Of a stretch of DNA of 9,209 bases, positions 328 through 5,244 are shown in pieces (position 1 is the first letter of the stretch; each line of letters opens with the position of its first letter). Origin of the DNA: a virus (taxonomy: Duplodnaviria; Heunggongvirae; Uroviricota; Caudoviricetes); IMG/VR virus record IMGVR_UViG_2923307698_000010; one strand, written 5' to 3'. The position numbers were made by a program, and so were the translations under genes. Under the pieces are notes generated by a model that saw nothing but the letters and a program-made list of their open reading frames with translations, was not told the DNA's origin and did no database searches.

Positions 328-1214
328 TGCCGCTGCTGGATAAGCTGCGTGAGCAGTACGGGGTCGGACCGCTATGCAGCGAACTGCATATTGCCCCGTC
401 AACGTATTACCACTGTCAGCAACAGCGACATCATCCGGATAAACGCAGTGCCCGTGCGCAGCGCGATGACTGGCTGAAGAAAGAGATACAGCGCGTATAC
501 GATGAAAATCACAAGGTATACGGTGTGCGTAAAGTCTGGCGTCAGTTGTTACGGGAAGGTATCAGAGTGGCCAGATGCACTGTGGCACGTCTCATGGCGG
601 TTATGGGACTTGCCGGTGTTCTCCGGGGTAAAAAGGTCCGCACTACCGTCAGCCGGAAAGCCGTTGCCGCATGCGACCGCGTAAACCGTCAGTTCGTGGC
701 AGAACGTCCAGACCAGTTGTGGGTGGCTGATTTTACCTGGGTAAGCACATGGCAGGGCTTCGTTTATGTGGCGTTCATCATTGATGTGTTCGCCGGATAC
801 ATCGTGGGATGGCAGGTCTCATCATCCATGGAAACAACATTCGTGCTGGATGCACTGGAGCAGGCGTTGTGGGCCCGTCGGCCGTCCGGCACAATCCATC
901 ACAGTGATAAAGGTTCTCAGTATGTATCGCTGGCCTACACGCAGCGGCTTAAGGAAGCCGGATTACTGGCATCAACAGGGAGTACTGGCGACTCGTATGA
1001 CAACGCGATGGCGGAGAGCATCAATGGTCTTTACAAAGCGGAGGTAATACACCGTAAGAGCTGGAAAAACCGTGCAGAAGTGGAACTGGCCACACTCACG
1101 TGGGTGGACTGGTATAACAATCGACGATTGCTGGAAAGGCTGGGCCATACTCCCCCGGCAGAAGCAGAAAAAGCTTATTATGCTTCCATCGGAAACGATG
1201 ATCTGGCAGCCTGA
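327..1214 (+). CDS. IS3-family transposase OrfB (DDE catalytic domain), IS629-like
   Basis: 295-aa ORF in the -1 frame relative to orfA, starting in a TAATG overlap. Shows the DDE/rve integrase-core signature (…WVADFTW…HSDKGSQY…DNAMAES…). Confidence 0.93.
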   Translation: MPLLDKLREQYGVGPLCSELHIAPSTYYHCQQQRHHPDKRSARAQRDDWLKKEIQRVYDENHKVYGVRKVWRQLLREGIRVARCTVARLMAVMGLAGVLRGKKVRTTVSRKAVAACDRVNRQFVAERPDQLWVADFTWVSTWQGFVYVAFIIDVFAGYIVGWQVSSSMETTFVLDALEQALWARRPSGTIHHSDKGSQYVSLAYTQRLKEAGLLASTGSTGDSYDNAMAESINGLYKAEVIHRKSWKNRAEVELATLTWVDWYNNRRLLERLGHTPPAEAEKAYYASIGNDDLAA

Positions 1215-2481: not shown

Positions 2482-3047
2482 GCGTTAGTTTCTCCACAAC
2501 CAGAAGCAATCGACGCCACGACGCCCGGAGCTGCACACTCGCGGGCGTCATTACTTTCTGAAATGCAAAAGATTTTGTAGACCAGTGCTGCATGCTCCTG
2601 CAGCTTCGAAATTGAGAGATACAGCTCGTCGTTAATTGCTGTCTTCTCATGCGGTTCCACTACACCGTCTTCGATTGCTGAACGAATCTGTTTTGAATAA
2701 CTGCCGATCTGTTCAATGACTTCCAGCAGACGCTGGTTAATATCGGCGTTGTCCACATCCTCGACGTCAGGAAGCGACACAAAGACGCCATTTGCAGACT
2801 GCGCCACAGCATCAGCAATGAAGTGAGTGCCACCAGCACGCTGTAAAACCATTGCCCATCCCAGCGGGAAAATCTGATCGCCATCTGCACGAAGGCGGTT
2901 GAATAAAGCGTTTTCTGTTACATCGAGCCAGTCAGCCGCTTCAGCGTAACCACCCGGCAACGCCGCGATAGTTTTTCTGACAGCTTTCACGTACCACTCA
3001 GGCTGTTTTTCTATTTTCCAGTGATGCTTACCCACGATTAGCCTCAT
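2478..3047 (-). CDS. CII-like lysogeny regulator (YdaT / phage CII CP76-type), HTH plus coiled-coil
   Basis: 189-aa ORF directly downstream of the cro-like gene. N-terminal HTH-like segment ([22 protein letters not shown]) and a helical C-terminal half. An alternative GTG start at 3035 has a better GAGG ribosome-binding site than the ATG at 3047. Family assignment is from memory. Confidence 0.65.
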
Positions 3048-3078
3048 CGTTCTGTGGTTAAAAATTGAAAGTGTTCTG

Positions 3079-3279
3079 CTAATCTTTCGGATAGATATCC
3101 GGTCTTAAGTCAGATTTCGTAATTGCACCTGACGTGCATTGCTCAAGTTTTTTAGCCAGCACAAAACTGGCTTTTTTATAGCCATTGAAAACCAGCCGTA
3201 AGTAGCCAGGAGTTGAGCCAACTTTTCCGGCCAACTCGCCCTGCTGTTCTTTGGTTAAAGAGTCCCAATACGCTTTCAT
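3079..3279 (-). CDS. Cro-like small HTH regulator (YdaS/Cro family)
   Basis: 66-aa ORF from ATG at 3279-3277 with a GGAGG ribosome-binding site ~8 nt upstream. Divergent from the cI-like gene with operators in between. The longer six-frame ORF to 3582 is rejected because it runs through the operator region and into cI. Confidence 0.7.
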   Translation of the reverse strand: MKAYWDSLTKEQQGELAGKVGSTPGYLRLVFNGYKKASFVLAKKLEQCTSGAITKSDLRPDIYPKD

Positions 3280-3369
3280 ACAATATGTACCTCCGGTGTA
3301 CATATTACATGATTGAAATGAACCTTCAAGATACTTGTACCTTAACGGTACAAGGGTTTTAATTTCGTT
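3280..3369. promoter_or_regulatory. Divergent operator/promoter region (oR-like) between cro-like and cI-like genes
   Basis: Two palindromes with a TGTAC core: ATATGTAC-N7-GTACATAT (3283-3305) and CTTGTACC-ttaac-GGTACAAG (3334-3354). Candidate minus-strand promoter TTGAAG(3329-3324)-16-TAATAT(3307-3302) for cro; candidate plus-strand TTGTAC(3335-3340)-17-TTTAAT(3358-3363) for cI. Confidence 0.55.
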
Positions 3370-4044
3370 ATGAAAACAATCCATGACATCCGGCGGTCTA
3401 ACGCCAGAAAACTGAGAGATGGTGTTGGAGGGAATTCTTCCTTTGCCACTATGATTGATCGCGAGCCAACCCAGACCAGCAGGTTTATGGGAGATGGTGC
3501 TACTAAAAATATCGGTGACAGCATGGCACGACACATCGAAAAATGTTTCGACCTGCCTGTCGGATGGCTCGATCAAGAACACCAGACAACGAACATCACA
3601 AAAAAACCTGATGTTTCAATCACTAATAAACAAATCACATTAGTCCCTGTCATATCATGGGTACAGGCCGGAGCATGGAAAGAAGTTGGATATTCTGAGG
3701 TTGATTTGAGCACAGCAGAAACGTATCCCTGCCCTGTACCCTGTGGGGAAATGACTTATATCTTGCGGGTGATAGGTGATTCAATGATTGATGAGTACCG
3801 CCCGGGAGACATGATTTTTGTCGATCCTGAAGTACCTGCCTGCCACGGTGACGACGTTATTGCATTGATGCACGATACAGGTGAAACCACCTTCAAAAGG
3901 TTGATAGAAGATGGGACACAGCGTTATCTCAAAGCGTTAAACCCAAACTGGCCTGAGCCTTACATTAAGATCAACGGTAATTGCTCTATAATTGGAACTG
4001 TGATTTTCTCAGGAAAACCAAGAAGATACAAAATCAAAGCCTAA
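3370..4044 (+). CDS. CI-type prophage repressor with C-terminal LexA-like S24 autopeptidase domain
   Basis: 224 aa. N-terminal HTH region, an Ala-Gly candidate cleavage site (VQAGAW), a Ser nucleophile in the GDSM motif and a downstream Lys (FKRLIEDG), as in LexA/lambda CI. Confidence 0.88.
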   Translation: MKTIHDIRRSNARKLRDGVGGNSSFATMIDREPTQTSRFMGDGATKNIGDSMARHIEKCFDLPVGWLDQEHQTTNITKKPDVSITNKQITLVPVISWVQAGAWKEVGYSEVDLSTAETYPCPVPCGEMTYILRVIGDSMIDEYRPGDMIFVDPEVPACHGDDVIALMHDTGETTFKRLIEDGTQRYLKALNPNWPEPYIKINGNCSIIGTVIFSGKPRRYKIKA

Positions 4045-4056
4045 TCAATGTTTATG

Positions 4057-4079
4057 AACCTGCTTCGGCAGGTTTTTTT
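4057..4079 (+). terminator. Rho-independent terminator after the cI-like gene
   Basis: AACCTGC-ttcg-GCAGGTT hairpin followed by T7 (4073-4079), 13 nt after the cI stop. Confidence 0.65.
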
Positions 4080-4083
4080 ATAC

Positions 4084-4117
4084 TTGACAATGTACCTATG
4101 AGATACATAATGTACCC
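4084..4117 (+). promoter_or_regulatory. pL-like sigma70 promoter with operator repeats (oL-like)
   Basis: TTGACA (4084-4089), 16-bp spacer, CATAAT (4106-4111). Overlapped by direct repeats AATGTACC (4089-4096 and 4109-4116) and the inverted repeat ATGTA-N9-TACAT (4090-4108), the same TGTAC core as the oR palindromes. Confidence 0.55.
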
Positions 4118-4196
4118 AAGAGAAACAACAAACAGGCAGGACGCCCACGAAGTAGCCGCCTGGGGCATATGAAGTCCAGGATGATTCGTTAGCAAC

Positions 4197-4218
4197 AAAA
4201 AAGCGCCCTACAGGACGC
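4197..4218 (-). terminator. Rho-independent terminator of the convergent minus-strand gene
   Basis: On the minus strand: GCGTCC-tgta-GGGCGC hairpin followed by U6 (plus-strand A-run 4197-4202), ~40 nt after the stop at 4259. Confidence 0.5.
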
Positions 4219-4221
4219 TTA

Positions 4222-4233
4222 GCTCTTTAACAA
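4222..4233 (+). promoter_or_regulatory. boxA-like element (GCTCTTTAACAA) in the pL-proximal transcript
   Basis: 12-nt identity to the remembered rrn boxA core (GCTCTTTAACAA), ~110 nt downstream of the pL-like promoter. No convincing boxB hairpin follows. Confidence 0.3.
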
Positions 4234-4250
4234 TCTGGATATCCACAACA
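4232..4250. repeat. Left copy of 19-bp inverted repeat (AATCTGGATATCCaCAACA) flanking the minus-strand gene
   Basis: Matches the reverse complement of 4793-4811 at 18 of 19 positions; contains the perfect 10-bp palindrome TGGATATCCA. Confidence 0.6.
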
Positions 4251-4258
4251 GTAGTAAT

Positions 4259-4750
4259 CTACAGATTGCCGTTAAGTTTTCTGGACAACTCCTCAATGGA
4301 TGGAGGCGATACGTAATCCGGATTTTTATTCATCAGAAACTTATTTTCACAGTGGAGGCACCTGCTTTTATGAAAAAGCTCATCTTCGCTAACCGGGAAT
4401 GGTTGAAGTATCGATACTATCTTTTGTCCAAAACATTTTGGGCAAAGATGCATGGTTATGCTGCCACCGTTCACGATTACCTCCTTCGAGTATACAAAAG
4501 TACCCGACTCAAGTTGGTTAAGGATATAGCCTTCCGTCTGAGCCTCAAAGTTTTCGAATTCTGCAATTTTAGCTTTGAGAGAAGCATTTATTTCTTGATA
4601 AGAGCCCACCAGTTCAACGAGAGACACGCATTCGCGCTGAATAGACGCAAGCTTTGAGTTCAGCTCACCAATAGCCGCATTTACTTCAGCTTGAGTTTTT
4701 GCCTCGTTCATTAGTTTTGCAATCTGGGCTGTTTCACGAATAGCCGTCAT
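4259..4750 (-). CDS. Hypothetical protein: N-terminal coiled-coil plus C-terminal CxxC…CxxC zinc ribbon; moron-like gene between cI/pL and the early-left operon
   Basis: Start taken at ATG 4750-4748 (alternative GTG at 4774 with an AAGAG ribosome-binding site). Residues upstream to 5038 are Arg-rich, low-complexity and cross the inverted repeat and GC-rich leader, so are judged non-coding. Own terminator at 4197-4218. AT-rich relative to flanks by eye. C-terminal motif CPKC…(20 aa)…CLHC. Confidence 0.6.
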   Translation of the reverse strand: MTAIRETAQIAKLMNEAKTQAEVNAAIGELNSKLASIQRECVSLVELVGSYQEINASLKAKIAEFENFEAQTEGYILNQLESGTFVYSKEVIVNGGSITMHLCPKCFGQKIVSILQPFPVSEDELFHKSRCLHCENKFLMNKNPDYVSPPSIEELSRKLNGNL

Positions 4751-4792
4751 TGCTGCCGTTAATTCAGCGATCACATTGAATACTCTTATTGT

Positions 4793-4811
4793 TGTTGGGG
4801 ATATCCAGATT
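4793..4811. repeat. Right copy of 19-bp inverted repeat (TGTTGgGGATATCCAGATT)
   Basis: Reverse complement of 4232-4250 with one mismatch. Embedded in a 13-bp direct repeat TTGTTGTTGGGGA (4789-4801 and 4822-4834). Confidence 0.6.
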
Positions 4812-5061
4812 AACCGAATCCTTGTTGTTGGGGAATAACCAGGTCCACCTCGCCTGATGTGGCTAAAAGCAGGCACATAACAGCTAAGTATTTTCAACCA
4901 GAGAGAATCCTTAGCGTTGTGGTGAATGCGGCTCAGCGCACGCGGGTTAAGGTTGAGGCTGACAGTCGACCTTCTGTGGATACCCACCCGCCTGGTGTGC
5001 AACCTTCGCCAGGCACCGGGAGGCACCCGGCACCACAAGTTTATGCTGTGTGTAGTCCTGG

Positions 5062-5107
5062 CGGTACCAGTTTGTACCCTTGCTTCCGGCTGGTACCGTC
5101 CTTTTTT
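5062..5107 (+). terminator. Intrinsic terminator in the leader upstream of yfdP
   Basis: 9-bp stem CGGTACCAG (5062-5070) / CTGGTACCG (5090-5098) with a 19-nt loop, followed by T6 (5102-5107). Confidence 0.55.
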
Positions 5108-5244
5108 GCAAAACAGAGAAGAGCATCACCGGACGACGGGCTCATAACCCAATCCATCCGGGCGGCTGCCACCGCAGGTGTTCTTCTCTGTTTTGTGGAG
5201 AAACCAACCGACCTTGCAGGGTCGATATGATGAGGAGCAGCAAA

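Follow-up and report, generated by a model that had tools for sequence, protein, structure and literature searches.

A candidate repressor-controlled early-left promoter and operator region downstream of cI, with a conserved leader RNA, in an e14/SfV-type lambdoid prophage

What separates the transcript of the lysogenic state from the early-left operon in prophages of the e14/SfV type, and does the DNA between them hold a promoter under the control of the phage repressor? The question is raised by a 9,209-nt stretch of viral DNA (Caudoviricetes; IMG/VR record IMGVR_UViG_2923307698_000010), hereafter called the window, in which the space behind a cI-like gene was described in an initial annotation as a terminator next to a pL-like promoter with operators. 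Our analysis indicates that the segment 4056-4127 belongs to a lambdoid prophage of the e14/SfV type and very probably marks where its lysogenic transcript gives way to its early-left operon, i.e. a repressor-controlled pL/oL region. This arrangement of terminator and pL/oL is the ordinary lambda-style layout and adds no concept to the lambda paradigm. The features on which the argument rests are listed in Table 1.

Table 1. Positions of genes, RNA elements and predicted regulatory sites in the window
Feature	Positions	Strand	Details
cro-like gene YmfT	3079-3279	-	66 aa; divergent from cI; weak HTH_3 / YdaS Pfam matches
oR region	3286-3352		three sites, positions of all three conserved across species
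oR site	3286-3302		1 mismatch; over cro ribosome-binding site (Shine-Dalgarno) and pR start
oR weak site	3319-3335		TGAACC-N5-GATACT; over pR -35
oR perfect palindrome	3336-3352		0/12 mismatches; over pRM -35
cI-like repressor, YmfK/CohE type	3370-4044	+	224 aa; PF00717; PGAP name ymfK
Intrinsic terminator of cI transcript	4056-4079	+	8-bp stem, UUCG loop, 7 U
pL-like sigma-70 promoter	4084-4111	+	-35 TTGACA 4084-4089, 16-bp spacer, -10 CATAAT 4106-4111
OL1, candidate operator	4091-4107		TGTACC-TATGA-GATACA; 1 mismatch; fills promoter spacer and first 2 bases of -10
OL2, candidate operator	4111-4127		TGTACC-CAAGA-GAAACA; 2 mismatches, poor right half, weaker
Conserved structured RNA, 5' end of predicted pL transcript	4127-4190	+	covariation
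Hairpin, intrinsic terminator for minus-strand cargo gene	4201-4220		followed by plus-strand boxA-like 12-mer
Variable cargo ("moron") gene	4259-4987	-	242 aa, coiled-coil, C-terminal CxxC...CxxC; convergent with pL
STnc100-like RNA	4894-5109	+	Rfam RF02076, 39 bits, E = 8e-6, full model length
Early-left genes yfdP, yfdQ, yfdR, yfdS, yfdT, xis, int	5227-9209	+	

Immunity type and the terminator, promoter and operators behind cI

The immunity type of the region is that of e14/SfV/SfIV, with cI corresponding to YmfK and cro to YmfT; the NCBI pipeline (PGAP) gives the two regulators the gene names ymfK and ymfT, and the records of SfV and PhiR49_1 call the cro-like gene cro. Positions 3000-5400 are 99.6% identical to Escherichia phage PhiR49_1, and the immunity region is common to the phages SfV, SfIV, Ayreon, cdtI and 2H10 and to Stx2c phages. 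Of 5426 complete E. coli genomes, 2161 (~40%) carry this region, K-12 among them.

The C-terminal domain of the cI-like protein is an S24 domain (PF00717, residues 93-212, Pfam E = 1.5e-26) whose profile matches the C-terminal domain of lambda cI at ~1e-15, and the cleavage site Ala100-Gly101 as well as Ser138 and Lys176 are conserved in the alignment of cI homologues, features that define a self-cleaving S24 repressor of the LexA/CI type. The N-terminal DNA-binding domain (approximately residues 1-75) has no match to a Pfam HTH model; it matches the N-terminal domain of the Salmonella phage repressor SPC32H Rep (PDB 5D50) as a distant relative (profile E = 4.6e-8, single sequence E = 5e-4). 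The repressor of HK022 was considered as a relative of this DNA-binding domain and rejected: only the S24 domains align, and the N-terminal domains show no detectable similarity. The cI gene appears to be leaderless, with a -10 element TTTAAT at 3358-3363, seven bases before the ATG, and this agrees with the ymfK mRNA having been mapped as leaderless in K-12 (PMC4681348).

Directly behind cI, the hairpin GAACCTGC-TTCG-GCAGGTTT occupies positions 4056-4075 and is followed by a T-run to 4079. It is a G+C-rich hairpin with an immediate U-run, its pairing is kept across relatives, and its predicted stability (dG -11.6 kcal/mol, z = -4.8) is reached by none of 200 shuffled sequences. The terminator that the initial annotation had placed at 4057-4079 is real as a sequence element, with its stem beginning one base earlier. 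Likewise, the near-consensus promoter said to lie within 5 bp of it is found after a gap of 4 bases (4080-4083), with 11 of 12 consensus positions matched. When both strands of the 9.2-kb window are scanned against the sigma-70 consensus, TTGACA-16-CATAAT is the sole match of at least 11/12; at least one 11/12 match occurs in ~13% of dinucleotide shuffles, so that the promoter match by itself is suggestive, not decisive. Transcription would be predicted to start at A4118/A4119. A minus-strand ORF at 4052-4198 (48 aa), inside which PhiR49_1 annotates a 38-aa ORF (117 bp, window positions 4052-4168), was considered as a gene and rejected, because the terminator, promoter and operators fall within it, as does a portion of the invariant leader RNA described below (up to 4168 for the annotated ORF).

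The promoter is overlaid by repeats. As had been claimed, there are two copies of AATGTACC (4089-4096 and 4109-4116), and an inverted repeat ATGTA (4090-4094)-N9-TACAT (4104-4108) over the spacer and the -10 region; the two copies lie within a 19-nt direct repeat, 84% identical. The true repeat unit is better given as the 17-bp palindrome TGTACC-N5-GGTACA, of which the window contains five sites at no more than two mismatches. Counting both strands, this motif has 10 matches against ~0.38 expected in shuffles, i.e. a more than 10-fold excess. The centre of OL2 is 20 bp from that of OL1, and OL2 runs from the last base of the -10 hexamer across the predicted start site to about +10. The claim that pL and oR share the operator core also holds, in that OL1 and OL2 match the oR sites 3286-3302 and 3336-3352. 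The proposed two-operator system under an S24-type repressor was right as to the S24 domain and the two sites of oL, whereas oR has three sites. The weak oR site directly abuts the perfect palindrome (17 bp centre to centre). A further operator-like site with 2 mismatches, TGTACCCTGTGGGGAAA, lies in the coding region of cI (3735-3751) and may be due to chance or be auxiliary. LexA boxes were rejected as an explanation of the repeats, because there is no CTGT-N8-ACAG.

Operators are common to Cro and CI in lambdoid phages, and the sequence alone cannot tell the binder; moreover, a Cro-like gene always accompanies the TGTACC type of operator. It could thus be argued that the sites at pL are used mainly by the Cro-like YmfT, or by another regulator, to turn the promoter down in the lytic phase, and not by the S24 repressor. 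We consider this exceedingly unlikely: use by Cro is compatible with binding of CI, maintenance of the prophage requires repression of pL, no repressor gene other than cI is expressed in the lysogenic direction, and the sites at pL are not LexA boxes.

Under the preferred reading, with the S24 repressor as the principal ligand, cI (of the YmfK type, leaderless in K-12) would be transcribed in the lysogen from the promoter at oR, and its transcript would stop at the terminator a few bases before pL, thus insulating the early-left genes from the sole transcription unit active in the lysogen. The promoter, which points away from cI toward the genes for recombination, excision and integration, would be covered by repressor dimers on two 17-bp operators, OL1 in the spacer between -35 and -10 and OL2 over the start site. 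Their 20-bp spacing corresponds to about two helical turns, would align the dimers along one side of the DNA and would allow cooperative binding, while the bound repressor would touch the -10 region and occlude RNA polymerase. Upon SOS induction, RecA-stimulated self-cleavage of the S24 repressor would free pL and pR together, and Cro (YmfT) probably acts on the same sites. Brody, Greener and Hill are said to have observed in 1985 that e14 is excised after SOS induction, which fits repressor control of xis and int.

Conservation of the module and comparison with lambda

The role of the segment can be judged from its conservation within the type and between species. The within-type sample comprised 78 IMG/VR contigs that encode an identical cI protein. 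Among them hardly any change is seen in the terminator, in the -35 and -10 hexamers (both intact in 77 of the 78) or in any of the four half-sites, and every non-singleton SNP in 4081-4150 avoids hexamers and half-sites. Within the operators these SNPs cluster in the N5 centres: the common SNPs of OL1 all fall in 4097-4101, those of the OL2 region at 4117 and 4120-4122, and the remaining common polymorphisms lie downstream of the operators. One common half-site polymorphism was found at oR, G3298A in 14 of the 78 relatives, and it yields an ATACA half-site as in OL1. In K-12 e14 the terminator, promoter and operators differ from those of the window only at two N5 bases of OL1, with identical hexamers and half-sites.

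For the comparison across species we used one genome per species and a profile of graded cI homologues. A module of terminator, promoter and operators was found 3' of cI in every Enterobacterales relative examined (repressors 57-100% identical), including ~25 other species from Pseudocitrobacter to Proteus and Rosenbergiella with repressors 57-88% identical. In these ~25 species, cI is followed by a differing hairpin, a T-run and then cTTGACAATGTACC-N5-G(G/A)TACATAAT, a core that can also be read as TTGACA-ATGTACC-N5-G(G/A)TACATAAT and that continues with GTACC in most of them. The stem of the terminator differs in sequence in other species yet still pairs. The promoter hexamers are kept, with the exceptions of Symbiopectobacterium (-10 CATTAT, 17-bp spacer) and Proteus (-35 TTGACT); in hexamers and half-sites only rare single-base variants occur, whereas N5 differs almost every time. 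OL1 is a perfect TGTACC-N5-GGTACA, with hypervariable N5, in about half of the other species. In OL2 the left TGTACC is kept and the right half reads G-N-N-A-C-A in most other species; OL2 is deleted or unrecognisable in about one third of them. The more remote homologues from Halomonadaceae (40-52% identical) retain sites of the oR type, and no terminator-promoter-operator module was found after their cI genes. The arrangement of terminator, promoter and inverted repeats also recurs in the heteroimmune phages SfII, ST64B, ZF40, YeP1 and SPN3UB, whose own repeats are unrelated in sequence. Thus, the operator sequence follows the type of repressor: homologous repressors go with the same half-sites and heteroimmune phages have other repeats.

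Because hexamers and half-sites are almost invariant while the terminator stem and the N5 centres are free to change, we read this pattern as the footprint of a protein-bound operator. It is the pattern expected of an immunity-specific operator and promoter, and neither chance nor shared ancestry by itself can account for it. One may object that the promoter and the repeats are a chance match or the decayed, functionless relic of a defective prophage, given the frequency of 11/12 promoter matches in shuffled windows and the state of this particular copy, which is defective: an IS3 element interrupts the replication gene, and int contains an in-frame TAG at 8748-8750 where PhiR49_1 has TGG (Trp), which makes it a pseudogene here. 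This explanation is, however, highly unlikely, since the same hexamers and half-sites occur in inducible and plaque-forming phages, with differences in the N5 centres only, the module is conserved in ~25 species with variation at the positions expected to be unconstrained, and the operator motif is strongly over-represented. The defects bear on another point: as this prophage copy is defective, the pL/oL module may no longer be important for this host. The IS3-family element (orfA/orfB) is inserted at the end of an O-like replication gene, in the stretches 1-1214 and 1096-2133, and carries an IS3 ALIL frameshift pseudoknot at 282-398 (119 bits); within the replication gene, iteron-like repeats of the TCAAAATCTGAC type at ~1758-1832 gave a spurious miRNA match.

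The records of related phages contain parts of the same picture. The Ayreon record in GenBank annotates the terminator and places a "promoter" feature on exactly the bases of the predicted pL, while the record of SfV has features for the terminator and for a "putative operator region" at oR and for nothing else of the module. In the searchable literature we found no experimental work on promoters or operators of SfV, e14, ymfK, cohE or ymfJ.

The likeness to lambda is extensive. As in lambda, and also in P22 and 434, pL is found on the left side of the repressor gene, has the orientation of that gene and points toward xis/int; in the window the promoter 3' of cI shares the plus strand with cI, yfdP...xis and int. 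Lambda likewise has 17-bp, partly palindromic operators over the core promoter with a consensus common to oL and oR, an S24 self-cleaving repressor and a leaderless cI mRNA. The differences are in the details. Lambda has three oL operators, while here there are two, which reach downstream across spacer and start site and not upstream of -35. Unlike in lambda, the cI terminator abuts -35 directly, without rex genes in between, and the DNA-binding domain of the repressor, without a Pfam HTH match, resembles the N-terminal domain of SPC32H Rep. Finally, there is neither an N gene nor a nutL of the lambda type (subtypes of lambda, P22 and 21); a different conserved RNA is found instead. The phages SfV, SfIV and SfII have been reported to lack N, cII and cIII (PMC3851460).

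A conserved leader RNA behind the promoter

The predicted pL transcript begins with a structured RNA that is conserved far beyond this immunity type. It starts ~9 nt past the predicted start and lies within the first ~75 nt of the transcript. A 6-bp closing helix, P1 (4127-4132 with 4185-4190), encloses J1, the invariant GGCAGGACGCCCACGAAGUAGCCGCC, and a 5-bp hairpin, P2 (4159-4163 with 4176-4180), which is followed by a conserved GGAUGA. In an alignment of 23 diverse sequences, 92.5% of the cells are paired, compared with 73% in shuffles and no more than 47% once partners are slid, and compensatory changes occur in 10 of 11 pairs. Among 86 distinct IMG/VR sequences, 95.5% of the cells are paired, in an alignment that favours the structure as it was fitted to the model. 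Over the two alignments shuffles reach 72-73% and slid partners no more than 47%, and compensatory changes affect 9-10 pairs; the covariation includes G-U pairs and fits transcription of the plus strand. The structure is seen only comparatively: folding of the single sequence is indistinguishable from that of shuffles (z = -0.9). The Rfam scan of the whole window at E <= 1 reported nothing in 4045-4260, and the core sequence (as an 18-mer) had no match in the searchable literature.

The exact 22-mer core of the leader occurs in at least 120 viral contigs. Among the matches listed, it lies in most contigs 20-33 nt after a TTGACA-type promoter, and the repeats that flank these promoters are of ~60 different types. 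As the core is invariant behind ~60 types of promoter and operator among the matches listed, the comparison suggests that the RNA has a host partner, e.g. RNA polymerase, and not one specific to a phage. The covariance model finds the leader a single time in each of the window, SfV, ST64B and e14, and never after pR. One IMG/VR contig has a second, divergent copy (42 bits; the two at 972-1041 and 1640-1722) about 650 nt downstream on the same strand.

The obvious comparison is with HK022, in which pL-putL resembles the present locus: this phage is also N-less and lambdoid, with an operator in the spacer between -35 and -10, similar half-sites (TGAAC-N5-GTACA) and a structured RNA that begins a few bases from the start of pL. 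Its operators are 15 bp long, two 5-bp half-sites around an N5 centre, compared with 17 bp here. In the OL region of HK022 (~780-880, minus strand) we observed TGAAC-TTTAA-GTACA and TGTAC-TATTG-GTACT, with e14-like half-sites and a centre 2 bp shorter. The put RNA of HK022 consists of two stem-loops of ~70 nt and is present both after pL and after pR, once each (PMC9378689), whereas the leader described here has a closing helix and one hairpin and no copy after pR. Homology of the leader to put was considered and rejected: no local alignment was obtained, and the leader is not recognisable as a put RNA because its covariance model finds nothing in HK022 at E <= 10. The position next to pL is the sole feature that the two RNAs have in common.

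Behind the leader lies a slot for variable cargo (4193-4890, up to the STnc100-like element), in which relatives carry unrelated genes in either orientation. Between the leader and yfdP, e14 has ymfJ/ymfI, SfV has orf33, and the window has the convergent 242-aa gene, which has no significant Pfam match and may be a superinfection-exclusion or defence gene. On the plus strand, 3' of the hairpin at 4201-4220, there is an rrn-type boxA-like 12-mer, GCTCTTTAACAA (4222-4233); together with the preceding A (4221) it agrees at 12 of 13 positions with TGCTCTTTAACAA, which we take to be the rrn boxA consensus. The 12-mer follows a hairpin rather than preceding one, an order like that of rrn leaders and unlike that of lambda nut. 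Sampled relatives with an adjacent minus-strand cargo gene have the module of hairpin and boxA, even where these genes differ, and sampled relatives with the first cargo gene on the plus strand lack it. The STnc100-like RNA, whose 39 bits are below the gathering threshold of 47 bits for RF02076, immediately precedes yfdP in every relative inspected; STnc100 has been linked to the PasD sRNAs of Stx phages in a 2026 preprint. In the window this RNA ends in a strong plus-strand intrinsic terminator at 5060-5109 (stem 5060-5100 and U6, dG -20.5).

This part of the window complicates the direction of early-left transcription, which had been stated to run from pL toward yfdP...int. The direction itself agrees with the sense indicated by the RNA covariation and with relatives that have no convergent cargo gene, namely e14 (ymfJ, then ymfH, xisE and intE), SfV (orf33), ZF40, YeP1 and SPN3UB, where the next genes are on the same strand. 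In the window, however, a transcript from pL would first run antisense through the cargo gene and then meet the terminator at 5060-5109 before yfdP, so that expression of yfdP...int from pL needs read-through or antitermination. An alternative is that pL mainly makes a short non-coding RNA (4127-4190), acting as a small RNA or a cis element, and that the early-left genes are transcribed from elsewhere. It would account for a highly conserved structured RNA so close to the predicted start, for the hairpin and the convergent gene that follow it in the window, and for the strong terminator ahead of yfdP. We nonetheless find it improbable. On the plus strand the hairpin at 4201-4220 is followed by AGCTCTTTAAC and not by a U-run; in SfV, e14, ZF40, YeP1 and SPN3UB the leader passes straight into plus-strand genes without a terminator in between; and the consensus scan of the plus strand from 4112 to 5400 found no further promoter-like site that could serve yfdP. 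Since there is no such site before yfdP, pL is the likely source of early-left transcription, and we infer that transcripts from it would reach yfdP...int.

Meaning for e14/SfV-type and other N-less phages

The e14/SfV immunity type is also that of serotype-converting Shigella phages, Stx2c phages and cdt phages. The operator consensus TGTACC-N5-GGTACA, together with the positions of pL and the terminator, allows prophage immunity to be typed from sequence; the consensus also helps to predict cross-repression among prophages, and knowledge of the operators and pL supports the design of SOS-induction reporters for such elements.

The leader RNA is more unusual than pL/oL itself and could matter more. 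It is conceivable, though on balance doubtful, that 4127-4190 represents an undescribed class of cis-acting phage RNA in N-less lambdoid phages, which would act on the polymerase or on the transcript. By analogy, one possibility is a protein-independent antiterminator, similar in action to put of HK022 and unrelated to it. Evidence for such a role is indirect and consists of the core kept behind ~60 promoter/operator types, the strong covariation of two helices, the fixed distance from the promoter, the terminators downstream and the lack of an Rfam family. If this is true, the leader would let transcription from pL pass the cargo and the STnc100-like terminators to xis/int, and it may explain how terminators are read through in the early-left operon of phages that lack N.
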